Shown here: in pieces, positions 6,766-63,039 of the stretch
How the letters are laid out: every line of letters begins with the position of its first letter
Numbering within the stretch: position 1 is the stretch's first letter
Assembly (NCBI GenBank): GCA_964016885.1
Contig: OZ024746.1
Span: 10,416,001 to 10,480,000, forward strand
Direction: 5' to 3'
DNA from: Eledone cirrhosa
Taxonomy: Eukaryota
Length of the DNA stretch: 64,000 nt
Notes under the pieces: model-generated
The model's database searches: none
What the model saw: the letters and a program-made list of their open reading frames with translations, nothing else
What the model was told of the DNA's origin: nothing
Made by a program: the position numbers and the translations under genes

Positions 6766-9700
6766 CATCATCACCGTTTTACGTCCGTTCTTCCACGCTA
6801 GCATGGGTTAGACGGGTTGTCCTGTTGTGGGCAGTGTCTGGTCGGCTGACCATGCCTTGCTCATACAGGAACTGATCTGGCTTGATTTCTACAGCTGGAT
6901 GCCCTTCCTAACACCAACCTCATTTACAGTGAGTGCTGGGTGCTTTTTCGTGGCGCCTACACGTCCACTTTACAGTGTGGGCTGGGTGCTTTTTTGCCGT
7001 GGCACCTCCACGACCACCTTGCGGTGGGGGGGGGGGCATATTGTTTATATGCTTCAGCATGTACCCATGGGAGGTCGGGTACCCTGTATTACTGCGTGAC
7101 GCCAGAAGTCACGGTCGTGTGTCATTGACTTTGAGAGGTGTAGTTGGGTAAGGTCGGCTTTTATCACCTCATCCCAAGTCATCTTGGGTCTCCCCACTCC
7201 GCGGTTTCCATCAACTTCTAGTGCTCTGCACCTTTTTATGCAGCTGTCATCCTTCATACGCATCACATGTCCATACCAGCGTAACCGCCTCTCCTGCACG
7301 CAGCATTTGATTCCTCTTATGCTCAGTCTCTCTCTCAATTCATTTATGCTTTGTCGTTCACGTATATTACTGTTACACATCCATCGGAGCATGCAGGCTT
7401 CGTTTCTCTCTAATCTACGTAAGTCTTCCACCTTCAGCGCCCAGGTCTCACTACCATGCAACATCGCTGTTCGGATACACGCATCATACAGTCTGCCTTT
7501 CATTCTGAGGGAGAAGCCTTTTGCAGCTAGCAGTGGTAGTAGTTCCCTAAACTTCTTCCATCCCGTTCTTACCCTAGTTATTGTACTTTCTGAGCACCCA
7601 CCTCCGTTGCTAATTCGGTCACCTAGGTAGCAGAAGCTGTCTACTGTTTCTACAGGGCCCTCCCAGAGATTGGTGGTACTTGTTTCCTGTGGCTGTTTGC
7701 TTGCTGTTTCAGCACAGCTGCTGCATGTGAATCCTACATTCTTAATTAAGCTTCCTGAGATCCCGCTACATCTCTTGTGTACCCATTGTTTGCATTTGGG
7801 GCAAAGAATGGAGTTCCTACCTACACCTTTCCTACATACTGAGCAAGGCCATTTCCCTGAGGGGATCTGGGTTCTGTTTTCTCGTCTACTTATAAGGACC
7901 TTAGTCTTTGTCATGTTGACTTTGAGGCCCTTTCTCTCTAGTCCCTGCTTCCAGGTTTGGAATTTATTCTCTAGTTCTACCATAGATTCAGCTATGAGTG
8001 CGAGGTCATCAGCATACAGGAGTTCCCATGGGCATCCGGTCTTAAACTCCTCCGTTATTGCCTGCAGGACTATGATGAACAGGAGAGGGCTAAGAACAGA
8101 GCCCTGGTGGACCCCAACCTGTACGCTAAATTCCTCGCTATACTCATTGCCAATCCTAACTTTGCTGACTGCTCCCCTATACATGGCTTGTACCGCTTTC
8201 ACAAGCCATTCATCTACTCCTAGTTTTCTAAGAGCCCACCAGATTACTGCACGTGGAACTCTGTCAAAGGCTTTCTCAAGGTCGACAAATGCCAAGTAGA
8301 GTGGCTTACTTTTAGCTAGGTACTTTTCCTGTAATTGCCTCACAAGGAAGAGCGCATCAGTGGTGCCTTTCCCTGGAACAAACCCAAATTGCATCTCGTC
8401 TATATTCACCCGGTCCCTAATCAGCTGTGCTATAACTCTTTCTGTTACTTTCATGACCTGGTCCATCAACTTTATACCTCTATAGTTTCCTCTATCTAGT
8501 GCATCGCCTTTACCTTTGTAGCAGTTGACAATGATGCTACTGCACCAATCTTTTGGTATGGCCCCCTCTAGTATTACCTGGTTAACGATACGTGTGGTTA
8601 TAGTGTGACCTACAGACCCAGATGCCTTCAGCATCTCGGCAGCTATACCCGATGGACCGGTTGCCTTCCCTATCTTCATATCTCTGATTGCCTTACTTAC
8701 TACGCTGCCGCTGACTTGTACTCCTGGTCCCTCTATAGGGTCTACGTGGGGTAGGGTCTCTTCTTCCCATGCATTCTCCTCATTTAGTAATCTATCATAA
8801 TGACTCTTCCATGCATCTTTCTTCTCAGCACTTGTGAGGGCAAGCTCACCTTTATCATTCCGGATACACTTCTCTCCAATGACATCACAACTATCTCTGA
8901 CACACTGCCTCGCAATCTTGAATACCTCCTGTTTCTGGTCCTCACGTTGTAAAACATGCTTGAATTTTCTATCCTCTGCTTCCCTCCTAGCTAAGTATAC
9001 TTGTCGCCTAGCTTCCCTCTTGGTCTCTATGTAATGTACCCTGCTCCCCCCGTTCTTCCATTCTTTCCATGCCTGTCTCTTGGCCTTGACTGCTTCATCT
9101 ACCTTATTGTTCCACCACCAAGTCACTCTCCTCCTGCTTGAGGTCTTACTCCAGCCACAAACCTCATCCGTCGCCTCTAGTAAGTTATTTTTTAGGAACT
9201 CCCAGTTCTCTTCTACGTTAAATGTCTCTATCTGTTCTTCTTTACTGTCGTAGGCGTTGAGTAAAATATCTTTAAATCTGTTACTGGTTGAGGGGACTTT
9301 CAGCTTCCAGATCTTTCTTCTCCAGGTTGGCCTCTGTTTCAGGGCTCGTCTAGTTCTGACCGTGAGGTCGCTGACAACTAAGCTATGTTGGGATGTACAT
9401 TCCTCACTAGGGAAGGCTTTTGTGTTTACGACCGTCCATCTGTCACGTCCTCTGATGAGGATAAAATCTAACTGACTAGAGTGCTCCCCTGATCTATAGG
9501 TGATCAGGTGGTTGTCGGGTTTTTTAAAGTTTGTGTTACATATCGACATGTCATTGGCGTCGCAGAATTCTAGAAGTCTGAATCCTTCCTCATTCCTTGT
9601 GCCAACTCCATGGCCTCCATGTACTCTATTGAAGCCGTCGCAGTGTTTACCTACGTGTCCGTTAAAATCTCCTGCAATGATTAGGAAGTCCTTGTCGTCT

Positions 9701-10343
9701 GTTAGAGCAGTAGTGTGTATTAGGGACTCGTAAAACCTATCCTTAAGTTCGTCTGGCAGCCCCGATTGGGGTGCGTAAGCTGATATTATTGTGGTAATTG
9801 TCTTATTCAGGACTAGTCTGAGTTTAATGATTCTTGCATTTACCCTGTACACTGAGATTACTTTATCTACCCACTTGTCAGCTAATAGTATACCTACACC
9901 ACCCATCCCATCGTCATTTCCCACCCAGAAAAATTTGTAGCACTGGCTTTTTCCTACAAGGACTCTAGCAGACCCTCCTCTCCATCTAGTCTCTTGCACA
10001 CAGCATACATCAACTTCCTTTCGCTCTAGCATTTCTACGATTTCTCCTGCTCTTCCTTTCATTGAGCCTACATTGATGGTACCAACTCGGAGTTTTGGGC
10101 ATTTGTCGACACTCGTAGGGGAGGGTCTCTGGGTTGGCGCTTCACGTGGGTGCTTGGTAGCTCGCAGATTCATATTTCATCTATTGATTCAGAGTTGCTC
10201 GTGTATTCCCAGCTCATCCATCCCTAACGGTGGGAAAATTGAGGGCTAGAAGGACAGTGGTGGTGGGGTAATGGCAGGGTGTGTTGGGATGCGCCAGAGG
10301 AGGAGAGAGTTAGTTAGGCAGGTAGTAGCAGCAGCAGCAGTGG
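6766..10343 (-). mobile_element. Apparently full-length RTE-clade LINE with (GAT)n 3' tail and 18-bp TSD
   Basis: Single APE+RT ORF. 3' UTR with ~45-bp tandem units, ending in CATCATCACC on +. ATACACATATATATGTAT flanks both ends (6748-6765 and 10344-10361), although this lies within a minisatellite so the TSD length is ambiguous. Confidence 0.93.
7054..10173 (-). CDS. RTE LINE polyprotein: AP endonuclease, reverse transcriptase and embedded C4HC3 (PHD-like) finger
   Basis: 1039-aa intact ORF. APE motifs GTINVGSM, VQETRW, SAYAPQ, AGDFNGH, QLDFIL, SQHSLV. RT motifs KGKGD, QFGF, FVDLEKAFDRV, GVHQGSVLSP, YADD, FCYLG. RTE-type C-terminus RRLRWYGHV...GRPKMTW. Confidence 0.97.
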   Translation of the reverse strand: MNLRATKHPREAPTQRPSPTSVDKCPKLRVGTINVGSMKGRAGEIVEMLERKEVDVCCVQETRWRGGSARVLVGKSQCYKFFWVGNDDGMGGVGILLADKWVDKVISVYRVNARIIKLRLVLNKTITTIISAYAPQSGLPDELKDRFYESLIHTTALTDDKDFLIIAGDFNGHVGKHCDGFNRVHGGHGVGTRNEEGFRLLEFCDANDMSICNTNFKKPDNHLITYRSGEHSSQLDFILIRGRDRWTVVNTKAFPSEECTSQHSLVVSDLTVRTRRALKQRPTWRRKIWKLKVPSTSNRFKDILLNAYDSKEEQIETFNVEENWEFLKNNLLEATDEVCGWSKTSSRRRVTWWWNNKVDEAVKAKRQAWKEWKNGGSRVHYIETKREARRQVYLARREAEDRKFKHVLQREDQKQEVFKIARQCVRDSCDVIGEKCIRNDKGELALTSAEKKDAWKSHYDRLLNEENAWEEETLPHVDPIEGPGVQVSGSVVSKAIRDMKIGKATGPSGIAAEMLKASGSVGHTITTRIVNQVILEGAIPKDWCSSIIVNCYKGKGDALDRGNYRGIKLMDQVMKVTERVIAQLIRDRVNIDEMQFGFVPGKGTTDALFLVRQLQEKYLAKSKPLYLAFVDLEKAFDRVPRAVIWWALRKLGVDEWLVKAVQAMYRGAVSKVRIGNEYSEEFSVQVGVHQGSVLSPLLFIIVLQAITEEFKTGCPWELLYADDLALIAESMVELENKFQTWKQGLERKGLKVNMTKTKVLISRRENRTQIPSGKWPCSVCRKGVGRNSILCPKCKQWVHKRCSGISGSLIKNVGFTCSSCAETASKQPQETSTTNLWEGPVETVDSFCYLGDRISNGGGCSESTITRVRTGWKKFRELLPLLAAKGFSLRMKGRLYDACIRTAMLHGSETWALKVEDLRRLERNEACMLRWMCNSNIRERQSINELRERLSIRGIKCCVQERRLRWYGHVMRMKDDSCIKRCRALEVDGNRGVGRPKMTWDEVIKADLTQLHLSKSMTHDRDFWRHAVIQGTRPPMGTC

Positions 10344-13067: not shown

Positions 13068-14093
<1,026 letters not shown>

Positions 14094-14155
14094 TAAAATA
14101 TTAAAAAAATAATGAATAAAACAATGAAACAGTTCCTTATATTAAACAAAAAAAG

Positions 14156-14310
14156 TTCATTATTTAACGATCGTTTCTAGGATATATATGTGTTAGAATT
14201 GGTATGCATATTCAACAGATCTATGTACAAAATTATACAAAATTATACAAACTATCAAAATTAAATATACATACCAAACACATATATATGCCGTCTTCAG
14301 AAATAATGAA
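14156..14310 (-). ncRNA. Type-I hammerhead ribozyme with ~115-nt stem II
   Basis: Minus strand reads TTCATTATTT-CTGAAGA-[long hairpin]-GAAAC-GATC-GTT|AAATAATGAA. Perfect 10-bp stem I, palindromic stem III AACGATCGTT, predicted GUU cleavage between 14166 and 14165. Confidence 0.8.
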
Positions 14311-14321
14311 ATAATTTATCT

Positions 14322-14526
14322 ACATATATATATATGTATATATATGTATGTATATATATGTATATATATGTATGTATATATATGTATATATATGTATATA
14401 TATATATGTATATATATGTATATATATATATATGTATATATATGTATATATATGTATATATATATATGTATATATATGTATATATATATATGTATATATA
14501 TGTATGTATATATATGTATATATATG

Positions 14527-14563
<37 letters not shown>

Positions 14564-14903
14564 GTATATATATGTATATATATGTATATATATATATATG
14601 TATATATATGTATATATATATGTATGTATATATATGTATATATATATGTATGTATATATATGTATATATATGTATATATATATATGTATATATATGTATG
14701 TATATATATGTATATATATGTATATATATATATGTATGTATATATATGTATATATATGTATATATATATATGTATGTATATATATGTATATATATGTATA
14801 TATATATATGTATGTATATATATGTATATATATATGTATATATATGTATATATATGTATATATATATATGTATATATATGTATATATATATATGTATGTA
14901 TAA

Positions 14904-14936
<33 letters not shown>

Positions 14937-14985
14937 TGTATATGTATGTATATATATATGTATATATATGTATGTATATATATGT

Positions 14986-15025
<40 letters not shown>

Positions 15026-15087
15026 GTATATATATGTATATATATGTATGTATATATATGTATATATATGTATGTATATATATGTAT

Positions 15088-15127
<40 letters not shown>

Positions 15128-15138
15128 GTATATATATG

Positions 15139-15171
<33 letters not shown>

Positions 15172-15493
15172 GTATGTATATATATGTATATATATATATG
15201 TATGTATATATATGTATATATATATGTATATATATGTATATATATATATGTATATATATATATGTATATATATGTATATATATATATGTATATATATGTA
15301 TGTATATATACATATGTATGTATATATATGTATATATACATATGTATGTATATATATGTATGTATATGTATGTATATATATGTATATATACATATGTATG
15401 TATATATATGTATGTATATGTATGTATATATATATATGTATATATATGTATATATGTATATGTATATATGTATATATATATATGTATATATGT

Positions 15494-15525
<32 letters not shown>

Positions 15526-15538
15526 GTATATATATATG

Positions 15539-15587
<49 letters not shown>

Positions 15588-15614
15588 GTATATATATATG
15601 TATGTATATATATG

Positions 15615-15647
<33 letters not shown>

Positions 15648-16044
15648 GTATATATATATGTATATATATATATATATGTATATGTATATATATGTATATA
15701 TATGTATATATATATGTGTATATATATATGTGTATATATATATGTGTATATATATATGTATATGTATATATATGTATATGTATATATATGTATATATATA
15801 TATATGTATATGTATATATATGTATATGTATATATATATATATGTATATGTATATATATGTATATGTATATATATATATGTATATGTATATATATATATG
15901 TATGTATATATATATGTATATGTATATATATATATGTATGTATATATATATGTATATGTATATATATGTATATGTATATATATGTATATGTATATATATG
16001 TATATGTATATATATGTATATGTATATATATGTATATGTATATG

Positions 16045-16103
<59 letters not shown>

Positions 16104-16140
16104 GTATATGTATATGTATATATATATGTATATATATATA

Positions 16141-16175
<35 letters not shown>

Positions 16176-16744
16176 ATATATGTATATATATATATGTATA
16201 TGTATATGTATATATATATGTATATATATATGTATATGTATATATATATGTATATATATATATATATGTATATATGTATATGTATATATATGTATATATG
16301 TATATGTATATATATGTATATATATATGTATATATATATATGTATATATGTATATGTATATATATGTATATATGTATATGTATATGTATATATATGTATA
16401 TGTATATGTATATATATGTATATATATATGTATATATATATATGTATATATATATATGTTTATATGTATATATATATATGTATATATATATATGTTTATA
16501 TGTATATATATATATGTATATATATATGTTTATATGTATATATATATATGTATATATATGTTTATATGTATATATATATATGTATATATATATATGTATA
16601 TATATATATGTATATATATATGTATATATATATATGTATATATATATATGTATATATATATATGTATATATATATATGTATATATATATGTATATATATA
16701 TATGGATATATATATATGTATATATATATATGGATATATATATG

Positions 16745-16809
<65 letters not shown>

Positions 16810-17240
16810 GTATATATATATATGTATATATATATATGTATATATATATATGTATATATATATATGTATATATATATATGTATATATATATATGTATATA
16901 TATATATGTATATATATATATGTATATATATATGTGTATATATATATGTATATATATATATATGTGTATATATATATGTATATATATATATATGTGTATA
17001 TATATATATGTGTATATATGTGTATATATATATATGTGTATATATATGTATATATATATATGTGTATATATATGTATATATATATATGTGTATATATATG
17101 TATATATATATATGTGTATATATATGTATATATATATATGTGTATATATATGTATATATATATATATGTGTATATATATGTATATATATATATATGTGTA
17201 TATATATGTATATATATATATATGTATATTTATATATATA

Positions 17241-17317
<77 letters not shown>

Positions 17318-17346
17318 ATGTATATTTATATATATATATATGTGTG

Positions 17347-17423
<77 letters not shown>

Positions 17424-17444
17424 GTGTATATATATGTGTATATG

Positions 17445-17535
<91 letters not shown>

Positions 17536-17966
17536 GTATATATATATATGTATATATATATATGTATATATATATATGTATATATATATATGTATATATA
17601 TATATGTATATATATATATGTATATATATATATGTATATATATATATGTATATATATATGTGTATATATATATGTATATATATATATATGTGTATATATA
17701 TATGTATATATATATATATGTGTATATATATATATGTGTATATATGTGTATATATATATATGTGTATATATATGTATATATATATATGTGTATATATATG
17801 TATATATATATATGTGTATATATATGTATATATATATATGTGTATATATATGTATATATATATATGTGTATATATATGTATATATATATATATGTGTATA
17901 TATATGTATATATATATATATGTGTATATATATGTATATATATATATATGTATATTTATATATATA

Positions 17967-18043
<77 letters not shown>

Positions 18044-18072
18044 ATGTATATTTATATATATATATATGTGTG

Positions 18073-18149
<77 letters not shown>

Positions 18150-18170
18150 GTGTATATATATGTGTATATG

Positions 18171-18241
<71 letters not shown>

Positions 18242-18242
18242 G

Positions 18243-18276
<34 letters not shown>

Positions 18277-18426
18277 TATGTGTATATATATGTATATATA
18301 TATATATATGTGTGTATATATATATATATATGTATATATATATGTGTATATATATATATGTATATATGTATATATGTATATGTATATATATATATATGTA
18401 TATATATATATGTATATATATATATG

Positions 18427-18457
<31 letters not shown>

Positions 18458-18517
18458 GTATATATCATCATCATCATCACCGTTTTACGTCCGTTCTTCC
18501 ACGCTAGCATGGGTTAG

Positions 18518-18549
<32 letters not shown>

Positions 18550-18568
18550 GTATATATATGTATATATG

Positions 18569-18615
<47 letters not shown>

Positions 18616-18658
18616 GTATATATATATATGTATATATATATGTATATATGTATATATG

Positions 18659-18711
<53 letters not shown>

Positions 18712-18852
18712 ATATATATATATATGTATATATGTATATATGTATATGTATATGTATATATGTATATGTATATATGTATATGTATATATATATGTATATA
18801 TGTATATATATATATATATGTATATATATATGTATATATATATGTATGTATA

Positions 18853-18889
<37 letters not shown>

Positions 18890-19247
18890 GTATATATATG
18901 TATATATATATATATATGTATATATACGTATATATATGTATATATATATATATATGTATATATATGTGTATATATATATGTATATATATGTGTATATATA
19001 TATATGTATATATATGTGTATATATATATATGTATATATATGTGTATATATATATATGTATATATATATGTGTATATATATATATGTATATATATGTATA
19101 TATATGTATATGTATATATATGTATATATATGTATATGTATATATATGTATATGTATATACATATATATACATATATATACATATACATATATATACATA
19201 TATATATGTATATGTATATGTATATATATGTATATACATATATATAT
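14322..19247. repeat. Giant (TA)n/(TATG)n microsatellite, ~4.9 kb, with a short RTE tail inserted
   Basis: Direct reading. Confidence 0.97.
18466..18518 (-). mobile_element. Extremely 5'-truncated (~53 bp) copy of the young RTE
   Basis: (CAT)n-CACCGTTTTACGTCCGTTCTTCCACGCTAGCATGGGTTAGA, identical to 6766-6812 apart from a longer (CAT)n tail. Confidence 0.9.
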
Positions 19248-19328
19248 GCTTCTCTGATGATCGTTGCTTTTCCATTAATATCCTCGTGATATTTAATGTT
19301 TTGCACCGTGAAACTGTACAGTTAGGGC
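19248..19328 (+). ncRNA. Type-I hammerhead ribozyme candidate with extended stem II
   Basis: GCTTCT-CTGATGA(19254-60)-TCGTTGC..CATTAATATC/GATATTTAATG..GCACCGT-GAAAC(19310-14)-TGTACA-GTT|AGGGC. Palindromic stem III AACTGTACAGTT; short, G:U-rich stem I. Confidence 0.62.
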
Positions 19329-19446
19329 CATTTGAATAGGTAAATATTTATATTATATTTTTTAATTTTGATTAATTTTAATTGTATATTAATTTTGATT
19401 TATTTTGAAAAATTGGTTGAATTTTACTTGTTCTGCTTATCTCGAT

Positions 19447-19482
19447 ATATGTATATATATGTATATATATATATATGTATAT

Positions 19483-19542
<60 letters not shown>

Positions 19543-19581
19543 GTATATATATGTATATATATATGTATATATATATATGTG

Positions 19582-19644
<63 letters not shown>
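19447..19644. repeat. (TA)n microsatellite
   Basis: Direct reading. Confidence 0.95.
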
Positions 19645-20240
19645 CATCATCACCGTTTTACGTCCGTTCTTCTACGCTAGCATGGGTTAGACGGGTTGTC
19701 CTGTTGTAGGCAGTATTTGGTCGGCTGACCATGCCTTGCTCATACAGGAACTGATTTGGCTTGATTTCTACAGCTAGATGCCCTTCCTAACACCAACCTC
19801 ATTTACTGCGTGACGCCAGAGGTCACGGTCGTGTGTCATCGCCTTTGAGAGGTGTAATTGGGTAAGGTCGGCTTTTATCACCTCATCCCAGGTCATCTTG
19901 GGTCTCCCCACTCCGCGGTTTCCATCGACTTCTAGTGCTCTGCACGTTTTTATGCAGCTGTCATCCTTCATACGCATCACATGTCCCTACCAACGCAACC
20001 GCCTCTTCTGCACACAGCATTTGATTCCTCTTATGCTCAGTCTCTCTCTCAATTCATTTATGCTTTGTCGTTCGCGTATATTACTATTACACATCCATCG
20101 GAGCATGCAGGCTTCGTTTCTCTTTAATCAATGTAAGTCTTCCACCTTCAGTGCCCAGGTCTCACTACCATGTAACATTGCTGTTTGGATACACGCATCA
20201 TACAGTCTGCCTTTCATTTTGAGGGAGAAGCCTTTTGCAG
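19645..20240 (-). mobile_element. 5'-truncated RTE copy with an internal ~165-bp deletion
   Basis: Closely matches 6766-6927 joined to 7093-7526. Confidence 0.92.
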
Positions 20241-24145: not shown

Positions 24146-27100
24146 CACACATGAAGGTAATGTGGTGTTCCAACATGTTCCTGGCTGTGACACATGAAGG
24201 TAGGGTGGTGTTCCAACATGTTTCTGACTGTGACACATGAAGGTAATGTGGTGTTCCAACATGTTTCTGACTGACACATGAAGGTAATGTGGTGTTCCAA
24301 CATGTTCCTGGCTGTGACACATGAAGGTAGGGTGCTGTTCCTCCATGTTCCTGGCTGTGACACATAAAGCTAGGGTGCTGTTCCTCCATGTTCCTGGCTG
24401 TGACACAAAGGTAATGTGGTGTTCCAACATGTTCCTGGCTGTGACACATGAAGGTATGGTGCTATTCCACCATGTTCCTGGCTGTGACACATAAAGGTAA
24501 TATGGTGTTCCACCATGTTCCTCATTGTGCTACATGAAGGTAATGTGGTGTTCCACCATGTTCCTGGCTGTGACACATGAAGGTAATGTGGTGTTCCACC
24601 ATGTTCCTGGCTGTGCTACATGAAGGTAAGGTGGTGTTCCACCATGTTCCTGGCTGTGACACATGAAGGTATGGTGCTGTTCCATCATGTTCCTGGTTGT
24701 GCTACATGAAGGTATGGTGCTGTTCCATGTTCCTGGCTGTGCTACATGAAGGTAATGTGGTGTTCCACCATGTTCCTGGCTGTGCTACATGAAGGTATGG
24801 TGGTGTTCCAACATGTTCCTGGCTGTGCTACATGAAGGTAATGTGGTTTTCCACCATGTTCCTGGCTGACACATGAAGGTATGGTGCTGTTCCACGTTCC
24901 TGGCTGTGACACATGAAGGTAGGGTGGTGTTCCACCATGTTCCTGGCTGTGACACGAAGGTAGAGTGGTGTTCCACCATGTTCCTGGCTGTGCTACATGA
25001 AGGTAATGTGGTGTTCTACCATGTTCCTGGCTGTGACACATGAAGGTAATGTGGTGTTCCAACATGTTCCTGACTGTGCTACATGAAGGTAATGTGGTGT
25101 TCCACCATGTTCCTGGCTGTCACACATGAAGGTAATGTGGTGTTCCAACATGTTCCTGACTGTGCTACATGAAGGTAATGTGGTGTTCCACCATGTTCCT
25201 GGCTGTGACACATGAAGGTAATGTGGTGTTCCCCTATGTTCCTGGCTGTGCTACATGAAGGTAATGTGGTGTTCCACCATGTTCCTAGCTGTGATACATG
25301 AAGGTAGCGTGGTGTTCCACCATGTTCCTGGCTGTGACACATGAAGGTAATGTGGTGTTCCACCATGTTCCTGGCTGTGACACATGAAGGTAATGTGGTG
25401 TTCCACCATGTTCCTGGCTGTGACACATGAAGTAGGGTGGTGTTCTAACATGTTCCTGGCTGTGATACATGAAGGTAGGGTGGTGTTCCAACATGTTTCT
25501 GACTGTGACACATGAAGGTAATGTGGTGTTCCAACATGTTCCTGGCTGTGACACATAAAGGTAATGTGGTGTTCCATGTTCCTGGCTGTGACACATGAAG
25601 GTAGGGTGCTGTTCCTCCATGTTCCTGGCTGTGATACATAAAGCTAGGGTGCTGTTCCACCATGTTCCTCATTGTGCTACATGAAGGTAATGTGGTGTTC
25701 CACCATGTTCCTGGCTGTGACACATGAAGGTAATGTGGTGTTCCCCTATGTTCCTGGCTGTGCTACATGAAGGTAATGTGGTGTTCCACCATGTTCCTGG
25801 CTGTGACACATGAAGGTAATGTGGTGTTCCAACATGTTCCTGACTGCTACATGAAGGTAATGTGGTGTTCCACCATGTTCCTGGCTGTGACACATGAAGG
25901 TAATGTGGTGTTCCAACATGTTCCTGACTGTGCTACATGAAGGTAATGTGGTGTTCCACCATGTTCCTGGCTGTGACACATGAAGGTAGGGTGGTGTTCC
26001 ACCATGTTCCTGGCTGTGACACATGAAGGTATGGTGGTGTTCCACCATGTTGCTGGCTGTGACACATGAAGGTAATGTGGTGTTCCACCATGTTCCTGGC
26101 TGTGACACATGAAGGTAGGGTGGTGTTCCACCATGTTCCTGGCTGTGACACATGAAGGTAGGGTGGTGTTCCAACATGTTTCTGACTGTGACACATGAAG
26201 GTAATGTGGTGTTCCAACATGTTCCTGGCTGTGACACATAAAGGTAATGTGGTGTTCCATGTTCCTGGCTGTGACACATGAAGGTAGGGTGCTGTTCCTC
26301 CATGTTCCTGGCTGTGACACATAAAGCTAGGGTGCTGTTCCACCATGTTCCTCATTGTGCTACATGAAGGTAATGTGGTGTTCCACCATGTTCCTGGCTG
26401 TGACACATGAAGGTAATGTGGTGTTCCAACATGTTCCTGACTGCTACATGACGGTAATGTGGTGTTCCACCATGCTCCTGGCTGTGACACATGAAGGTAA
26501 TGTGGTGTTCCCCTATGTTCCTGGCTGTGCTACATGAAGGTAATGTGGTGTTCCACCATGTTCCTGGCTGTGACACATGAAGGTAATGTGGTGTTCCACC
26601 ATGTTCCTGGCTGTGACACATGAAGGTAGGGTGGTGTTCCACCATGTTCCTGGCTGTGACACATGAAGGTAATGTGGTGTTCCACCATGTTCCTGGCTGT
26701 GACACATGAAGGTAATGTGGTGTTCCACCACGTTCCTGGTTGTGACACATGAAGGTAGGGTGGTGTTCCACCATGTTCCTGGCTGTGACACATGAAGGTA
26801 GGGTGGTGTTCCAACATGTTTCTGACTGTGACACATGAAGGTAATGTGGTGTTCCAACATGTTCCTGGCTGTGACACATAAAGGTAATGTGGTGTTCCAT
26901 GTTCCTGGCTGTGACACATGAAGGTAGGGTGCTGTTCCTCCATGTTCCTGGCTGTGACACATAAAGCTAGGGTGCTGTTCCACCATGTTCCTCATTGTGC
27001 TACATGAAGGGAATGTGGTGTTCCACCATGTTCCTGGCTGTGACACATGAAGGTAATGTGGTGTTCCAACATGTTCCTGGCTGTGACACATGAAGGTAAT

Positions 27101-27889
27101 GTGGTGTTCCAACATGTTCCTGGCTGTGACACATGAAGGTAATGTGGTGTTCCACCATGTTCCTCATTGTGCTACATGAAGGTAATGTGGTGTTCCACCA
27201 TGTTCCTGGCTGTGACACATGAAGGTATGGTGCTGTTCCACCATGTTCCTGGTTGTGCTACATGAAGGTATGGTGCTGTTCCATGTTTCTGGCTGTGCTA
27301 CATGAAGGTAATGTGGTGTTCCACCATGTTCCTGGCTGTGCTACATGAAGGTATGGTGGTGTTCCAACATGTTCCTGGCTGTGCTACATGAAGGTAATGT
27401 GGTGTTCCACCATGTTCCTGGCTGACACATGAAGGTATGGTGCTGTTCCATGTTCCTGGCTGTGACACATGAAGGTAGCGTGGTGTTCCACCATGTTTCT
27501 GGCTGTGACACATAAAGGTAATGTGGTGTTCCACCATGTTCCTGGCTGTGACACATGAAGGTAGGGTGGTGTTCCACCATGTTCCTGGCTGTGCTACATG
27601 AAGGTAATCTGGTGTTCCACCATGTTCCTTGCTGTGACACATGAAGGTAATGTGGTGTTCCACCATGTTCCTGGCTGTGACACATGCAGGTAATGTGGTG
27701 TTCCAACATGTTCCTGACTACTACATGAAGGTAATGTGGTGTTCCACCATGTTCCTGGCTGTGACACATGAAGGTAGGGTGGTGTTCCACCATGTTCCTG
27801 GCTGTGACACATGAAGGTAATGTGGTGTTCCACCATGTTCCTGGTTGTGACACATGAAGGTAGGGTGGTGTTCCAACATGTTCCTGGCT
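24146..27889. repeat. 43-bp tandem satellite, ~87 units, with higher-order blocks
   Basis: Consensus CATGAAGGTAATGTGGTGTTCCACCATGTTCCTGGCTGTGACA; period checked at 25211 and 25254. Confidence 0.97.
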
Positions 27890-29124
27890 CTGATTCCTAA
27901 AACAAACTAAAGAATAGGATGTACTGAAGAAATATGATAATTTTAATTTAATTTTTTATTTTTCCTTTTGTAGCACTTGATATGTCTCTTCTCTATAGTA
28001 CACACATTTCCTTTCTAGGGTCAAGTGAACCCTTTTGTTTTGGCAAACACATAATAACCTCTCTAGTGCTGGTGGCTCAATAAAATGCATCTACTACATT
28101 CTGTAATGTGGTAGTGCTGGTTCCGCAATAAATTACACATAGTACACTTTATAAAGTGGTTGGCATTAGGTAGGGTATCCAACCATAGAAACCATGCCAA
28201 CATATGTAATGTCTTAAGGCCTAGTTATCTGATTCATCTTATCTCAGATCATGACAACCCATCCAACCTATGCCATCTTAGTGGACATAAAATGATGATA
28301 ATGCACCCCCCCCCCATATTTCTTTTAGTTACTCTCGAGTCTCAAATAATCCCCCCCCCCCCCTGCCATTGGAACCCAAGAATACTTTAAAGGAATATAT
28401 TGATGGATTATTTTCCTAATTCTTTAATTCTTCAGTTGGTTTTATTTGACTAGCTATGCTGGGGCACCACCTTATTGGGTATTTTAGTTGATTACATTGA
28501 TCTAAGTATTTATTTTTTTATTGATCTCAGTGTTTATTTTAGTGATCTTGAAATGAAGGCAGGAAAAGTAGACCTGGGCAAGATTTGAGCAGAATCTGAA
28601 GAACCATTTTAAAAAATAGTTATTCTGCAATCTAGGATAGAATTTATTTTGTTGGAAGCTACCCCCCTCCCTCTAGTCCACAATCATTAATTGAATTTTT
28701 GATATTTATTAATGTTTAAAAACTTCTTTTGACCTAAATTATGTACATAAAAACTGATTAAATCTGCAGCATTTGAAATAAAAATTATTTTAAAGAAAGG
28801 ATAAAGTTTGATTTTATTAAAATATATTCACAATTAATTGGCTGTTATTGAAGTACCATGTAAAAATTGGTTTGAAAATAAATCTCAAATTTTAAACCTG
28901 TAATAATTGTTGTAAACGTAACACCTCTAACTAGAAGTAATTTAGGAACATTTTAGAAAAATATTTTATTTAATTTATCATTTTTTTTCTTCTGTTTATT
29001 GATACAGGCTTCTAAAATCAATATAGCAACTTGCTATAATATTCTGTGAAATGATTACATAACTGAACTTGAATCTATCATTTAAGCAGTTTTATATTCA
29101 ATATTGCAACAGTCAGCAATTACA

Positions 29125-35075: not shown

Positions 35076-38000
35076 TAGTTTCTTCATCTTGGTTGTTATA
35101 GTTTCTTCATCTCAGTTGTTATAGTTTCTTCATCTCAGTTGTTATAGTTTCTTCATCTCAGTTGTTATAGTTTCTTCATCTTGGTTGTTATAGTTTCTTC
35201 ATCTCAGTTGTTATAGTTTCTTCATCTTGGTGGTTATATTCTTCATCTCGGGTGTTATAGTTTCTTCATCTTGGTTGTTATAGTTTCTTCATCTTGGTGG
35301 TTATATTCTTCATCTTGGTTGTTATAGTTTCTTCATCTTGGTTGTTATAGTTTCTTCATCTCGGTTGTTATAGTTTCTTCATCTTAGTTGCTATAGTTTC
35401 TTCATCTCAGTTGTTATAGTTTCTTCATCTTGGTGGTTATATTCTTCATCTCGGGTGTTATAGTTTCTTCATCTTGGTTGTTATAGTTTCTTCATCTTGG
35501 TTGTTATAGTTTCTTCATCTCAGTTGTTATAGTTTCTTCATCTCAGTTGTTATAGTTTCTTCATCTTGGTTGTTATAGTTTCTTCATCTCGGTTGTTATA
35601 TTCTTCATCTCAGTTATTATAGTTTCTTCATCTCGGTTGTTATAGTTTCTTTATCTCAGTTGTTATATTCTTCATCTCAGTTGTTATAGTTTCTTCATCT
35701 TGGTTGTTATAGTTTCTTTATCTCGGTTGTTATAGTTTCTTCATCTCGGTTGTTATAGTTTCTTCATCTCGGTTGTTATAGTTTCTTCATCTTGGTTGTT
35801 ATAGTTTCTTCATCTCGGTTGTTATAGTTTCTTCATCTCGGTTGTTATAGTTTCTTCATCTCGGTTGTTATAGTTTCTTCATCTCGGTTGTTATAGTTTC
35901 TTCATCTCGGTTGTTATAGTTTCTTCATCTTGGTTGTTATAGTTTCTTCATCTCGGTTGTTATATTCTTCATCTCAGTTATTATAGTTTCTTCATCTCGG
36001 TTGTTATAGTTTCTTTATCTCAGTTGTTGTATTCTTCATCTCAGTTGTTATATTCTTCATCTCAGTTGTTATAGTTTCTTCATCTTGGTTGTTATAGTTT
36101 CTTTATCTCGGTTGTTATAGTTTCTTCATCTCGGTTGTTATAGTTTCTTCATCTCGGTTGTTATAGTTTCTTCATCTTGGTTGTTATAGTTTCTTCATCT
36201 CGGTTGTTATATTCTTCATCTCAGTTGTTATAGTTTCTTCATCTTGGTTGTTATAGTTTCTTCATCATGAAGAACATCTTGGTTGTTATAGTTTCTTCAT
36301 CTTGGTTGTTATAGTTTCTTCATCTCGGTTGTTATATTCTTCATCTCAGTTGTTATAGTTTCTTCATCTTGGTTGTTATAGTTTCTTCATCTCGGTTGTT
36401 ATAGTTTCTTCATCTTGGTTGTTATAGTTTCTTCATCTCGGTTGTTATAGTTTCTTCATCTCGGTTGTTATAGTTTCTTCATCTCGGTTGTTATAGTTTC
36501 TTCATCTCGGTAGTTATAGTTTCTTCATCTCCGTTATTATAGTTTCTTCATCTCGGTTATTATAGTTTCTTCATCTCGGTTGTTATAGTTTCTTTATCTC
36601 AGTTGTTGTATTCTTCATCTCAGTTGTTATATTCTTCATCTCAGTTGTTATAGTTTCTTCATCTTGGTTGTTATAGTTTCTTTATCTCCGTTATTATAGT
36701 TTCTTCATCTCAGTTATTATAGTTTCTTCATCTCGGTTGTTATAGTTTCTTTATCTCAGTTGTTGTATTCTTCATCTCAGTTGTTATATTCTTCATCTCA
36801 GTTGTTATAGTTTCTTCATCTTGGTTGTTATAGTTTCTTTATCTCGGTTGTTATAGTTTCTTCATCTCGGTTGTTATAGTTTCTTCATCTCGGTTGTTAT
36901 AGTTTCTTCATCTTGGTTGTTATAGTTTCTTCATCTCGGTTGTTATATTCTTCATCTCGGTTGTTATAGTTTCTTCATCTCGGTTGTTATAGTTTCTTTA
37001 TCTCGGTTGTTATAGTTTCTTCATCTCGGTTGTTATAGTTTCTTCATCTTGGTTGTTAGAGTTTCTTCATCTCGGTTGTTAGAGTTTCTTCATCTCGGTT
37101 GTTATAGTTTCTTCATCTCGGTTGTTATAGTTTCTTCATCTCGGTTGTTATAGTTTCTTCATCTCGGTTGTTATAGTTTCTTCATCTCGGTTGTTATATT
37201 CTTCATCTCAGTTGTTATAGTTTCTTCAGCTTGGTTGTTATAGTTTCTTCATCTCGGTTGTTATAGTTTCTTCATCTTGGTTGTTATAGTTTCTTCATCT
37301 CGGTTGTTATAGTTTCTTCATCTCGGTTGTTATAGTTTCTTCATCTCGGTTGTTATAGTTTCTTCATCTCGGTTGTTATAGTTTCTTCATCTCCGTTGTT
37401 ATAGTTTCTTCATCTCGGTTGTTATAGTTTCTTCATCTCAGTTGTTATAGTTTCTTCATCTTGGTTGTTATAGTTTCTTCATCTTAGTTGCTATAGTTTC
37501 TTCATCTTGGTTGTTATAGTTTCTTCATCTTGGTTGTTATATTCTTCATCTTGGTTGTTATATTCTTCATCTTGGTTGTTATAGTTTCTTCATCTTGGTT
37601 GTTATAGTTTCTTCATCTTGGTTGTTATAGTTTCTTCATCTTAGTTGTTATAGTTTCTTCATCTCAGTTGTTATAGTTTCTTCATCTTGGTTGTTATAGT
37701 TTCTTCATCTTGGTTGTTATAGTTTCTTCATCTTGGTTGTTATATTCTTCATCTTGGTTGTTATATTCTTCATCTTGGTTGTTATAGTTTCTTCATCTTG
37801 GTTGTTATAGTTTCTTCATCTCGGTTGTTATAGTTTCTTCATCTCGGTTGTTATAGTTTCTTCATCACGGTTGTTATAGTTTCTTCATCTCAGTTGTTAT
37901 AGTTTCTTCATCTCGGTTGTTAGAGTTTCTTCATCTCGGTTGTTATAGTTTCTTCATCTCGGTTGTTATAGTTTCTTCATCTCGGTTGTTATAGTTTCTT

Positions 38001-39244
38001 CATCTCGGTTGTTATAGTTTCTTCATCTCGGTTGTTATAGTTTCTTCATCTTGGTTGTTATAGTTTCTTCATCTCGGTTGTTATAGTTTCTTCATCTCGG
38101 TTGTTATATTCTTCATCTTGGTTGTTATAGTTTCTTTATCTTGGTTGTTATAGTTTCTTTATCTTGGTTGTTATAGTTTCTTCATCTTGGTTGTTATATT
38201 CTTCATCTTGGTTGTTATAGTTTCCTCATCTTGGTTGTTATAGTTTCTTCATCTTGGTTGTTATAGTTTCTTCATCTTGGTTGTTATAGTTTCTTCATCT
38301 TGGTTGTTATAGTTTCTTCATCTCGGTTGTTATAGTTTCTTCATCTCAGTTGTTATAGTTTCTTCATCTTGGTTGTTATAGTTTCTTTATCTTGGTTGTT
38401 ATAGTTTCTTCATCTTGGTTGTTATAGGTTCTTCATCTTGGTTGTTATAGTTTCTTCATCTTAGTTTCTATAGTTTCTTCATCTTGGTTGTCATAGTTTC
38501 TTCATCTTGGTTGTTATATTCTTCATCTTGGTTGTTATAGTTTCTTCATCTTGGTTGTTATAGTTTCTTCATCTTGGTTGTTATAGTTTCTTCATCTTGG
38601 TTGTTATAGTTTCTTCATCTTGGTTGTTATAGTTTCTTCATCTCAGTTGTTATAGTTTCTTCATCTCAGTTGTTATAGTTTCTTCATCTTGGTTGTTATA
38701 GTTTCTTCATCTTGGTTGTTATAGTTTCTTCATCTTGGTTGTTATAGTTTCTTCATCTTGGTTGTTATAGTTTCTTCATCTTGGTTCTTATATTCTTCAT
38801 CTTGGTTGTTATATTCTTCATCTCAGTTGTTATAGTTTCTTCATCTCAGTTGTTATAGTTTCTTCATCTCGGTTGTTATAGTTTCTTCATCTCAGTTGTT
38901 ATAGTTTCTTCATCTTGGTTGTTATAGTTTCTTCATCTTGGTTGTTATAGTTTCTTTATCTCAGTTGTTATAGTTTCTTCATCTTGGTTGTTATAGTTTC
39001 TTCATCTTGGTTGTTATAGTTTCTTCATCTCGGTTGTTATAGTTTCTTCATCTCAGTTGTTATAGTTTCTTCATCTTGGTTGTTATAGTTTCTTCATCTT
39101 GGTTGTTATATTCTTCATCTTGGTTGTTATAGTTTCTTCATCTTGGTTGTTATAGTTTCTTCATCTTGGTTGTTATAGTTTCTTCATCTTGGTTGTTATA
39201 TTCTTCATCTTGGTTGTTATATTCTTCATCTTGGTTGTTATAGT
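35076..39244. repeat. 23-bp tandem satellite, ~180 units, with 21-bp variants
   Basis: Consensus TAGTTTCTTCATCTYRGTTGTTA; period checked at 35821 and 35844. Confidence 0.97.
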
Positions 39245-44795: not shown

Positions 44796-45373
44796 ACAAA
44801 ATAATGATATAGGTACATATTTGTGTATACAAACAAAACAATGAAAGTAGTCAATACAAAAGTAGAGTGGTATATTATTATTTATTACAGCTTCACAAGC
44901 TGCATTAAATATTTAAAATGTGACATTTTTCCAGCTACAAACAAATGCACTTATGAAATTTAATGATTAGCTTTCTTTTCAGAATATGAATTTTCCCAAA
45001 TTATAAATTTTAGATTACTAATTAAATTTTTCATGTTTTTTTTTTCTTTTATATTTGTATTTTTTAAAAATCTGCATACGTGGAGGTATGTAGTCTAGTG
45101 GTTAGGGTATTGAACTGAAGATCATGTGGTCATGGGTTCGATTCTTGGACCAGGCGGTGTGATATGTTGCTTTTCATGATAGGATTAGAGCCTTTATCAT
45201 TAAAACACTCAAGAAACCTCCTATGAAATACAGCCTCATATGAGGCCAACTAAGCATGTACAGTTATGAGCTGTAAATTTCATTTCATTCTTTTCATACT
45301 TGCATTGAAATGTTTTTATATATTTAAAGAATGTATTGAATGTAAATTAAACTCTACAATATTTTATCATTAG

Positions 45374-54523: not shown

Positions 54524-56054
54524 GTATGTTAATATATAATATATACATATGTATGTGTATATATACACACACGTGTGTATGAAAGAATTAATATTGATTT
54601 CTGTCATTGGCACAAAGCAACAAATTTGGTGGGGTGGGGTATATTAGGAAGAAATTATTAAAAACATTCTTAATGTTTTTTTATTTAGTTTATGTTTTTA
54701 TTTGTCTCTATTTCATTTTCCATTCTAACATGATTGAGATGAGTTTTATTGGAGCAATTGTTTTCACAGCTACTGGTTGTCTTTGTTATTGCCAACCACT
54801 CAACCACGGAGTTGCTGGAACAAGGGTCTTTTTTGTTAGTCAGACAAAGTAAAATAAGCAGTAGTATCTGAGGAAACTAGTGGTTATCTATAGTTGTAAT
54901 TAGTAAGTATAAGAGTTGAAGGGTGGATTAATAAATTGATTTGCTTAACATTTCGGACAGTCTTACCCTTCTTCAGAATTAAAAAAAAACCCATCACTTT
55001 CTGATGAAGTTTATTGCCTAAAATGTTAACACTTTCCCTTCTTCCTTATAGCAGAGTTGTTAGATTGTTGTATCAATCGTTTCATGATTGCATTTCGTAT
55101 GAAATACACTCTATTTTAATTAATTAATGAAGAATTTTGAGGGGGTTTACTAAAATTATTAATTATTTCATTACTAAGATAGTAATTTAATATATGGTTC
55201 TCATATAAAATTATGTTGGAAGATTTTAATTTAAACTGGAAACCTTTAAAATGGGTGACTTTATTTCATAGAACCAGAGCTGGTTTGGGTGGGGTGGAGT
55301 GGTGGTGGTAACTAAAGGGTTAATTGCTTGGCAGTATTTCTTCTGGCTCTCTCTTCAAATCTTGCTGAGGTCAAGTTTACCTTTCATCCCTTTGATGTTG
55401 ATAAATAAAGTACCAGTCCAGGGTGATGGATGAGCAGAATTGTTAGAACATGCTGGATGCTTTGTGATATTTTTTCCAGCTCCATTTTATGTTCAAATCC
55501 TGTTTCATATTTCTGGAAAAATAGTGACAAGAAAAAATTGGGTGTCCTCTATTATTAAACCATTTAAAGAGAACTCCTATGAGATGCAGACTTGTAAGAG
55601 GTCTGCTAAACCTATGCAAGTGTGAGTTGTAACAACAACATAGTGAATTTCTTTCTTTCTGATTTTGAACTTTTTATAAAGCAAATAAAGTTATATACTT
55701 TGTTCAAGGACAACACAATGGTGGTTGCATGTTTTAAACTTAGGACCATGTGTACTGTTAAGTCCCGTTACATTGTTTCCAAATAGGAAAGATTAAAAAG
55801 ATGAAATGTATATTTATGTTTCACATATTTATTTCTAAACAAAACTGTAAAAACTGTTTAAATATTTATAAAGTAAAGTTTTTTTTAATTATAAATATAC
55901 TTTTTATATGGGAGGTTTCAAGAACAGTAAAATAAACATAAATAAAATATTTTAGTTTCATATTTTGATAATTTTTCAATTTAATGTTTATTCACCTTTA
56001 CACTTTTCTTCTGAATTTCTTAAGAAGAAATTGTATTATGATTATATATTCAGA

Positions 56055-62894: not shown

Positions 62895-63039
62895 CTTTGT
62901 CTCTCTCTCTCTCTCTCATTCTATCTTCTGATGAAGGATTAACATCTGAATTGTTAAGATACTTTTCCTACTATACAAGCATTAAACTAATATATATCAT
63001 CATTGTACTGTATTCTTCCATGCTGTTTTTCTTTGTTGA

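Follow-up and report, generated by a model that had tools for sequence, protein, structure and literature searches.

The 64,000-nucleotide stretch of DNA analysed as a whole (the window) is eukaryotic, AT-rich and repeat-rich. At positions 19246-19444 its plus strand carries an insert of about 200 bases in a TA repeat, which combines a type I hammerhead layout with a T-rich tail and has (TA)n on both sides. The core segments CUGANGA, GAAA and UH succeed each other in type I order and helices I to III are present (Table 1). All the pieces that an earlier note had named are found at their place, on the plus strand and between TA arrays, but their pairing is less regular than it had described. 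Stem I, TTCT/AGGG, is there, with a weak pairing of 4 bp made of two Watson-Crick and two G-U pairs. Both strands of stem II exist too: helix II spans 49 nt and consists of a basal helix of 6 bp, an internal loop and a distal helix of 10 bp, yet a T-C mismatch at 19264/19306 interrupts the basal helix (CGTTGC/GCACCG), and a one-base bulge the distal one. The palindromic nature of stem III holds, whereas the 12-mer proposed for it takes in A14 and the cleavage-site base, which leaves 10 usable nucleotides (19313-19322). The tail is 81% A+T and 52% T, and 121 nt lie between the predicted cut and the element end. The first bases of the insert (19246-19249) also fit the TA array, suggesting microhomology at this border.

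Table 1. Coordinates of the hammerhead-bearing insert, of the second insert and of the TA arrays around them.
Feature	Positions	Strand	Remarks
5' truncation point	19246..19249	+	other copies match from 19246, with common non-TA sequence ahead
Stem I, 5' strand TTCT	19250..19253	+	pairs with 19324-19327; no variants among copies
Core CUGAUGA (CTGATGA)	19254..19260	+	no variants among copies
Helix II, 49-nt spacer	19261..19309	+	U-U (or U-C) base; paired changes among copies
Core GAAA	19310..19313	+	no variants among copies
Palindromic stem III, 10 nt	19313..19322	+	palindrome kept in variants; self-duplex predicted at -13.4 kcal/mol
GUU triplet (GTT)	19321..19323	+	cut predicted behind 19323; many other copies have GUA
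Stem I, 3' strand AGGG	19324..19327	+	pairs with 19250-19253
T-rich tail to element 3' end	19328..19444	+	33 nt (19365-19397) missing in a subfamily
Second family, same layout	14095..14321	-	(TA) arrays on both sides
4.9-kb (TA)n/(TATG) array	14322..19247		insertion target, 5' side of the 19246-19444 element
(TA)n array	19445..19644		3' flank of the 19246-19444 element; other copies likewise end in (TA)n

The surroundings hold several other repeats. The 4.9-kb TA array has G confined to one strand throughout (GC skew near +1) and contains a duplicated stretch of 726 bp at about 16900-18400, with breaks at 17229/17955 and 17325/18051. An intact RTE-type LINE frame of 1040 aa (7054-10176, minus strand) encodes RVT_1 and Exo_endo_phos domains and a PHD finger behind the RT domain; it is flanked by TA/AC-rich repeats, and its 3' end presumably resembles an octopus repeat. 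Further 3' ends of this family sit in or against TA arrays at 18465-18518 (54 bp) and 19644-20240 (about 600 bp), so that the TA array has received retroelement ends of three kinds. Margins within 20 bp of (TA)n make up 1.1% of the non-array DNA of the window. Two minisatellites, of 88 units of 43 bp (24147-27893) and 183 units of 23 bp (35076-39244), lie further downstream, as does a segment around 45095-45160 that we take to resemble a tRNA-derived SINE head. Decayed minimal hammerheads occur at 62928, 63172 and 55001 on the plus strand and at 54976, 48796 and 54288 on the minus strand. They read CTGANGA, short helix II, a GAAA-like segment and GTTAA, which is the type described for metazoan Penelope-like elements (PLEs). 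Those at 62928 and 63172 form a near-tandem pair 244 bp apart and those at 54976 and 55001 stand back to back.

The second family of Table 1 has, on the minus strand, a stem I of 10 bp, CUGAAGA (14300-14294), a helix II of 116 nt, GAAA (14177-14174), an 8-nt palindrome, GUU (site base 14166) and a tail of 71 nt. That the two cassettes share their layout and differ in sequence, as had been claimed, is borne out: one structural descriptor finds both, and BLASTN (word 7, E<=1) gives no match between them. MAFFT aligned only AT-rich letters, out of register, and homology of the two cassettes was therefore rejected. The two long-stem units flank the 4.9-kb array in divergent orientation; as the G of this array lies on one strand throughout, they look like independent insertions.

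The bare sequence motif is not significant, being matched in 10 of 100 shuffles. The structural descriptor, which was written after both sites had been seen, identifies exactly two sites in the window, the 14.2-kb unit and the 19246-19444 unit; on local shuffles it gives any match in 1/200 and a match with palindromic stem III in 0/200. On its own, helix II has a more stable fold than 199 of 200 shuffles (z -3.25), while the whole 90-nt motif folds no better than shuffles (z +0.44). Rfam has no match at gathering score, nor any at E<=10 on 19244-19448; an E-value scan of 13900-19800 returned TA-repeat artefacts only among the 150 of 288 matches listed. The long helix II may explain this lack of an Rfam match. 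The frequency of the bare motif in shuffles and the ordinary folding of the whole motif would suit a chance motif, or a hairpin born from the instability of the TA array. This reading has practically no credit left in view of the second, independent case, of the many copies in three organisms and of their unvaried core and two-sided pair changes described below; the copies in public runs have already refuted it.

Parts of the element are present in 6 of 11 public runs, which come from three studies and three organisms (A, B and C). Copies were aligned from four of these runs, X1, X5, X6 and X9. The element is multi-copy, with 277 contigs in X1, 65 RAD reads in X9 and 11 records each in X5 and X6. 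The hammerhead is covered by 4/11 X5 contigs and by a single one of the 11 X6 records, which has 3 differences in 129 nt. The ten other X6 records are less than 90% alike and were not counted as copies; in those listed, the similarity is confined to the AT-rich tail and the flanks are unrelated. Matches of this kind may also inflate the high depth over the tail in X1, which was for this reason left out of account as a gradient of truncation. Searches of other collections by pattern yielded one match in metagenomes (L001), two in bacterial genomes of one genus (L002 and L003) and none in viral contigs. L001 and L002 are chance matches that both lack the helices, L002 lying at the end of a 334-aa ORF.

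The copies end alike on their 3' side and differently on their 5' side, the pattern of 5' truncation with a shared 3' end seen in PLEs. Among the loose ends listed, those behind 19450 are (TA)n (7 X1 contigs and 13 X9 reads), while those before 19246 are a common non-TA sequence (4 X1 contigs, 3 X5 contigs and 10 X9 reads), which reaches 160 nt upstream in one X5 contig, with 30 nt of sequence read. Since other copies continue upstream with this common sequence, the 19246-19444 copy is 5'-truncated. The upstream sequence of the longer copies contains, directly ahead of stem I, a hairpin of about 10 bp closed by a TTT loop. In the first bin (19240-47) the depth is 5.87 of 23.5 in X5, 8.05 of 32.2 in X6 and 2.5 of about 11 in X9; this corresponds to two covered bases of eight, so no aligned record shows the 5' TA junction of the window. 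One joint is found among those listed, the 33-nt skip in the tail, with neither a head-to-tail joint nor a partial tandem or pseudo-LTR (pLTR) joint. Insertion into (TA)n, a trait of the Hydra clade of PLEs, is seen not only in the 19246-19444 and 14.2-kb copies but also in 7 contigs and 13 reads. A contig of 60 nt identical to 19273-19332 has a word depth of 1013, against 9 for the shallowest contig listed. This is a hint at a recent spread of exactly this variant, depth being no copy number.

These results bear on the wider proposal of the earlier note, that the two cassettes represent a structural class with several families. A class with at least two unrelated families beside TA arrays, and no chance motif, is what the data show. 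The cassette is nevertheless not self-contained, its 5' edge being the truncation point beyond which other copies extend with common non-TA sequence. Nor is the class of a new kind: publications already describe type I hammerheads near the 3' end of (TA)n-targeting PLEs, with a palindromic stem III.

The copies also document how the hammerhead varies. There are 31 variant rows at 28 places, 20 of which fall within 19250-19327. None of the 20 variable places hits the 11 core positions (p 0.03), nor the 21 positions of core, stem I and the 15.2-16.2 pair taken together (p 0.0006); both p values are post hoc, come from related copies and follow an 80% filter. Conservation of the core among homologues had been named beforehand as one test of the proposal, and the core is indeed unvaried while the helices covary. 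At the cleavage site, the one change seen is U to A, in 3/4 X5 contigs and 27/33 X9 reads. GUC and GUA are given as the fastest triplets in PMC3138052, GUU being also active.

Two-sided changes affect six pairs of helices II and III, in few and related copies, stem I being unvaried. The haplotypes behind them were obtained by unique decoding of depth sums in X5, for four contigs of this one run, with 1/2, 17/19, 19/22 and 8/8 differences placed. G19263-C19307 becomes T-A, T19279-A19291 becomes A-T and T19276-A19295 becomes C-G, or T-G in another copy. Where an extra base follows 19277, it forms a T-A or G-C pair with 19293, and the bulge disappears. T19315-A19320 becomes C-G, and the palindrome centre (19317-18) changes from TA to AT. 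A C to A change at 19306 in another copy mends the mismatch of the 19246-19444 copy. Four cells break a pair, namely A19274-G19297 and G19263-A19307 in one contig each and C19267-A19303 in two. The change at the palindrome centre makes pairs in a two-strand stem III and never within one hairpin, which favours the double-hammerhead model.

In the monomer of the 19246-19444 copy, pairing between core and cleavage site is predicted (probability 0.74), and the active fold has -5.4 kcal/mol versus -12.7 for the misfold. Self-cleavage of this copy as a monomer is accordingly predicted to be doubtful. For two strands, the double hammerhead (-27.2) is better than two monomers (-25.4) and worse than the minimum (-35.2), in which the stem III duplex is kept and stem I is shifted. 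The 14.2-kb unit has a minimum fold close to the active one (-47.1 vs -45.9); its two-strand minimum of -109.0 includes the double-hammerhead helices, with A14-U17 also paired. In the long copies, stem I might be stabilised by the upstream sequence.

Comparison with known systems gives several leads to the origin of the element. The Hydra clade groups PLEs that are short and carry canonical hammerheads; 26 of its 27 families are inserted in (TA)n, and one comes from Octopus bimaculoides (Craig 2021, PMC8557442). As here, its members target (TA)n, place the hammerhead about 30-110 nt before the 3' end, and combine CUGANGA-U ... U-GAAAC with a stem I of 3-7 bp and a near-palindromic stem III (PMC8557442). 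In its 26 hammerhead rows the helix II base is U-U in 14 and U-C in one, both of which also occur in the 19246-19444 family, and the cut follows GUU in 10, GUA in 12 and GUC in 4, i.e. GUU or GUA in 22/26 (PMC8557442). Position, U-U base and triplet thus all fit a Hydra-clade hammerhead. The spacer is the exception: it never exceeds 26 nt in the Hydra rows (PMC8557442) but measures 49 and 116 nt here, helix II of the 19246-19444 unit being about twice the longest listed. The 19246-19444 sequence is also unlike Hydra-1_Obim (PMC8557442) by eye, and no ORF is linked to it here. The clade is marked in its proteins by RWK, DKT, a CxCX5C linker, no CCHH and a C-terminal EN (PMC8557442); 299 of the 323 stop-free frames of at least 45 aa in the window were compared with Pfam and gave no GIY-YIG or RT, the three weak matches being all below cut-off, so that no PLE ORF is linked to the insert.

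The minimal hammerheads of metazoan PLEs are likewise of type I, with a short helix I (4-5 bp), a palindromic stem III and a helix II longer than usual; they are thought to be dimeric and are mostly solo copies from truncated PLEs, of low activity (PMC4209133). They differ in having a helix II of 7-8 bp and almost no helix III, whereas here helix II has 16 bp divided between two helices and stem III is a palindrome of 10 nt; they also have, beside the core, a G10.1-C11.1 pair that is absent here (PMC4209133). Among PLEs, a long helix II has been recorded before, in two rows of spike-moss PLE-X, of about 50 nt and marked as deviating; that element is however from a plant, endonuclease-less, inserted in 28S rDNA and endowed with a non-canonical stem III (PMC8557442).

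On balance, we consider the 19246-19444 insert a 5'-shortened copy that is likely the 3' end (pseudo-LTR) of a (TA)n-targeting, Hydra-like PLE. In its build it follows the 3' hammerhead of a Hydra-type PLE, and its mode of insertion was most likely that of such an element as well. The assignment to the clade rests on non-coding traits, because the U-U helix II base is found in the axolotl retrozyme as well (PMC7229834) and the Neptune and Naiad clades also favour microsatellites. We regard it as unlikely that the insert is instead the 3' end of a PLE of one of these two clades. Neptune has hammerheads besides its microsatellite bias, and its linker has been proposed to target microsatellites, while five of five cephalopod Naiads prefer (TA)n and eight Naiads are marked 'HHR_half_core', with core halves 35-50 nt apart that would fit the 49 nt seen here (PMC8557442). 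The 3' ends of Naiad_Obim and Naiad_Ovul, though, have the core halves in opposite order and an unlike tail, by eye, and the stem III motifs of both units have no match in the supplement of PMC8557442, where line breaks or gaps could hide one. A telomere-attached PLE was also considered, on the signs of one reverse telomere-like hexamer upstream and of TTAGGG across the cleavage site. It was set aside because the telomere-like units are single, TTAGGG is absent in GUA copies and the insertions are in TA arrays.

A different relation to PLEs would hold if the insert were a short non-autonomous element, i.e. a dispersed monomeric retrozyme or pLTR derivative that borrows a TA-targeting PLE enzyme, its long helix II being part of a rod-like RNA or a recognition signal. 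Retrozymes are PLE-derived, from pLTRs, and exist as monomers (Li, Clavereau and Pollet 2026, bioRxiv 10.64898/2026.07.22.740005), and non-LTR retrozymes are, as here, non-coding, AT-rich, a few hundred bases long and provided with a type I hammerhead (PMC7229834; bioRxiv 10.64898/2026.07.22.740005). Two unrelated short units with the hammerhead on their 5' side within one array would suit such an element, as would the deep contig identical to the 19246-19444 copy, with its hint at recent spread (again, depth is no copy number), and no ORF was seen for it in the window or in the copy pieces. Non-LTR retrozymes are, however, tandem units with circular RNA (PMC7229834), whereas a single unit known from DNA lies here between TA arrays, and their hammerheads have a helix I of about 6 bp and a helix II of 4 bp (PMC4209133). 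Moreover, the joints listed include no head-to-tail one and the 3' loose ends listed are (TA)n, and the 5' ends vary among copies as in truncated PLEs. We hold such a non-autonomous element to be possible, albeit somewhat doubtful.

The RTE family offers another reading, given its intact frame and the RTE-like 3' ends that abut TA arrays at 18465-18518 and 19644. The cassette could be a SINE-like passenger of an RTE LINE that also inserts at TA arrays, but it has no sequence in common with the RTE ends and lacks their (GAT)n tail, and hammerheads are tied to PLEs (PMC4209133, PMC6765202), so that we find this highly improbable.

Under the preferred reading as a Hydra-like PLE 3' end, a GIY-YIG endonuclease would nick the TA array and prime reverse transcription on the target, the RNA being copied from a fixed 3' point and the copying stopping early. 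The common 3' end in (TA)n together with the copy-specific 5' end points to such target-primed insertion with early stop. The short cDNA would then be joined at 19246 through AT microhomology. For PLEs, it is reported that AT-rich DNA is nicked, that start sites are internal and fixed, and that insertion in vitro has no need of cleavage (Frangieh 2024, PMC11167929). The parent RNA would self-cleave after GUH, probably in the form of a double hammerhead, in which the palindromic stem III joins two copies. The 19246-19444 copy itself is probably a passive passenger, as its core is predicted to be buried when it folds alone. In O. vulgaris, 31 Penelope-like families were recently active (Bonar 2026, PMC13282606), and the repeat library of that study may contain the 19246-19444 family.

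The association of hammerhead, PLE and (TA)n is already known, and the one departure from the published Hydra-clade set is the long helix II. Overall the finding is therefore modest. In a search of open-access literature we found no description of a long helix II in hammerheads of animal repeats inserted at TA arrays. A bolder proposal is that several unrelated, short, ORF-less, TA-targeted families of this animal lineage form a dispersed, SINE-like class of hammerhead elements that Rfam and published descriptors have overlooked. Their long covarying helix II would then signal to a Penelope-type enzyme, and their palindromic stem III would make cleavage need two copies. We find this proposal rather unlikely as it stands. 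Whatever the class, PLE ribozyme counts, and claims that some clades lack ribozymes, may be too low, since a helix II of 50-120 nt escapes Rfam here and would escape short-spacer descriptors. The variants of the stem III centre that stay palindromic bring direct comparative support to the two-copy model; with its naturally occurring GUU and GUA versions, the family also provides material to test whether cleavage matters to spread in PLE biology.
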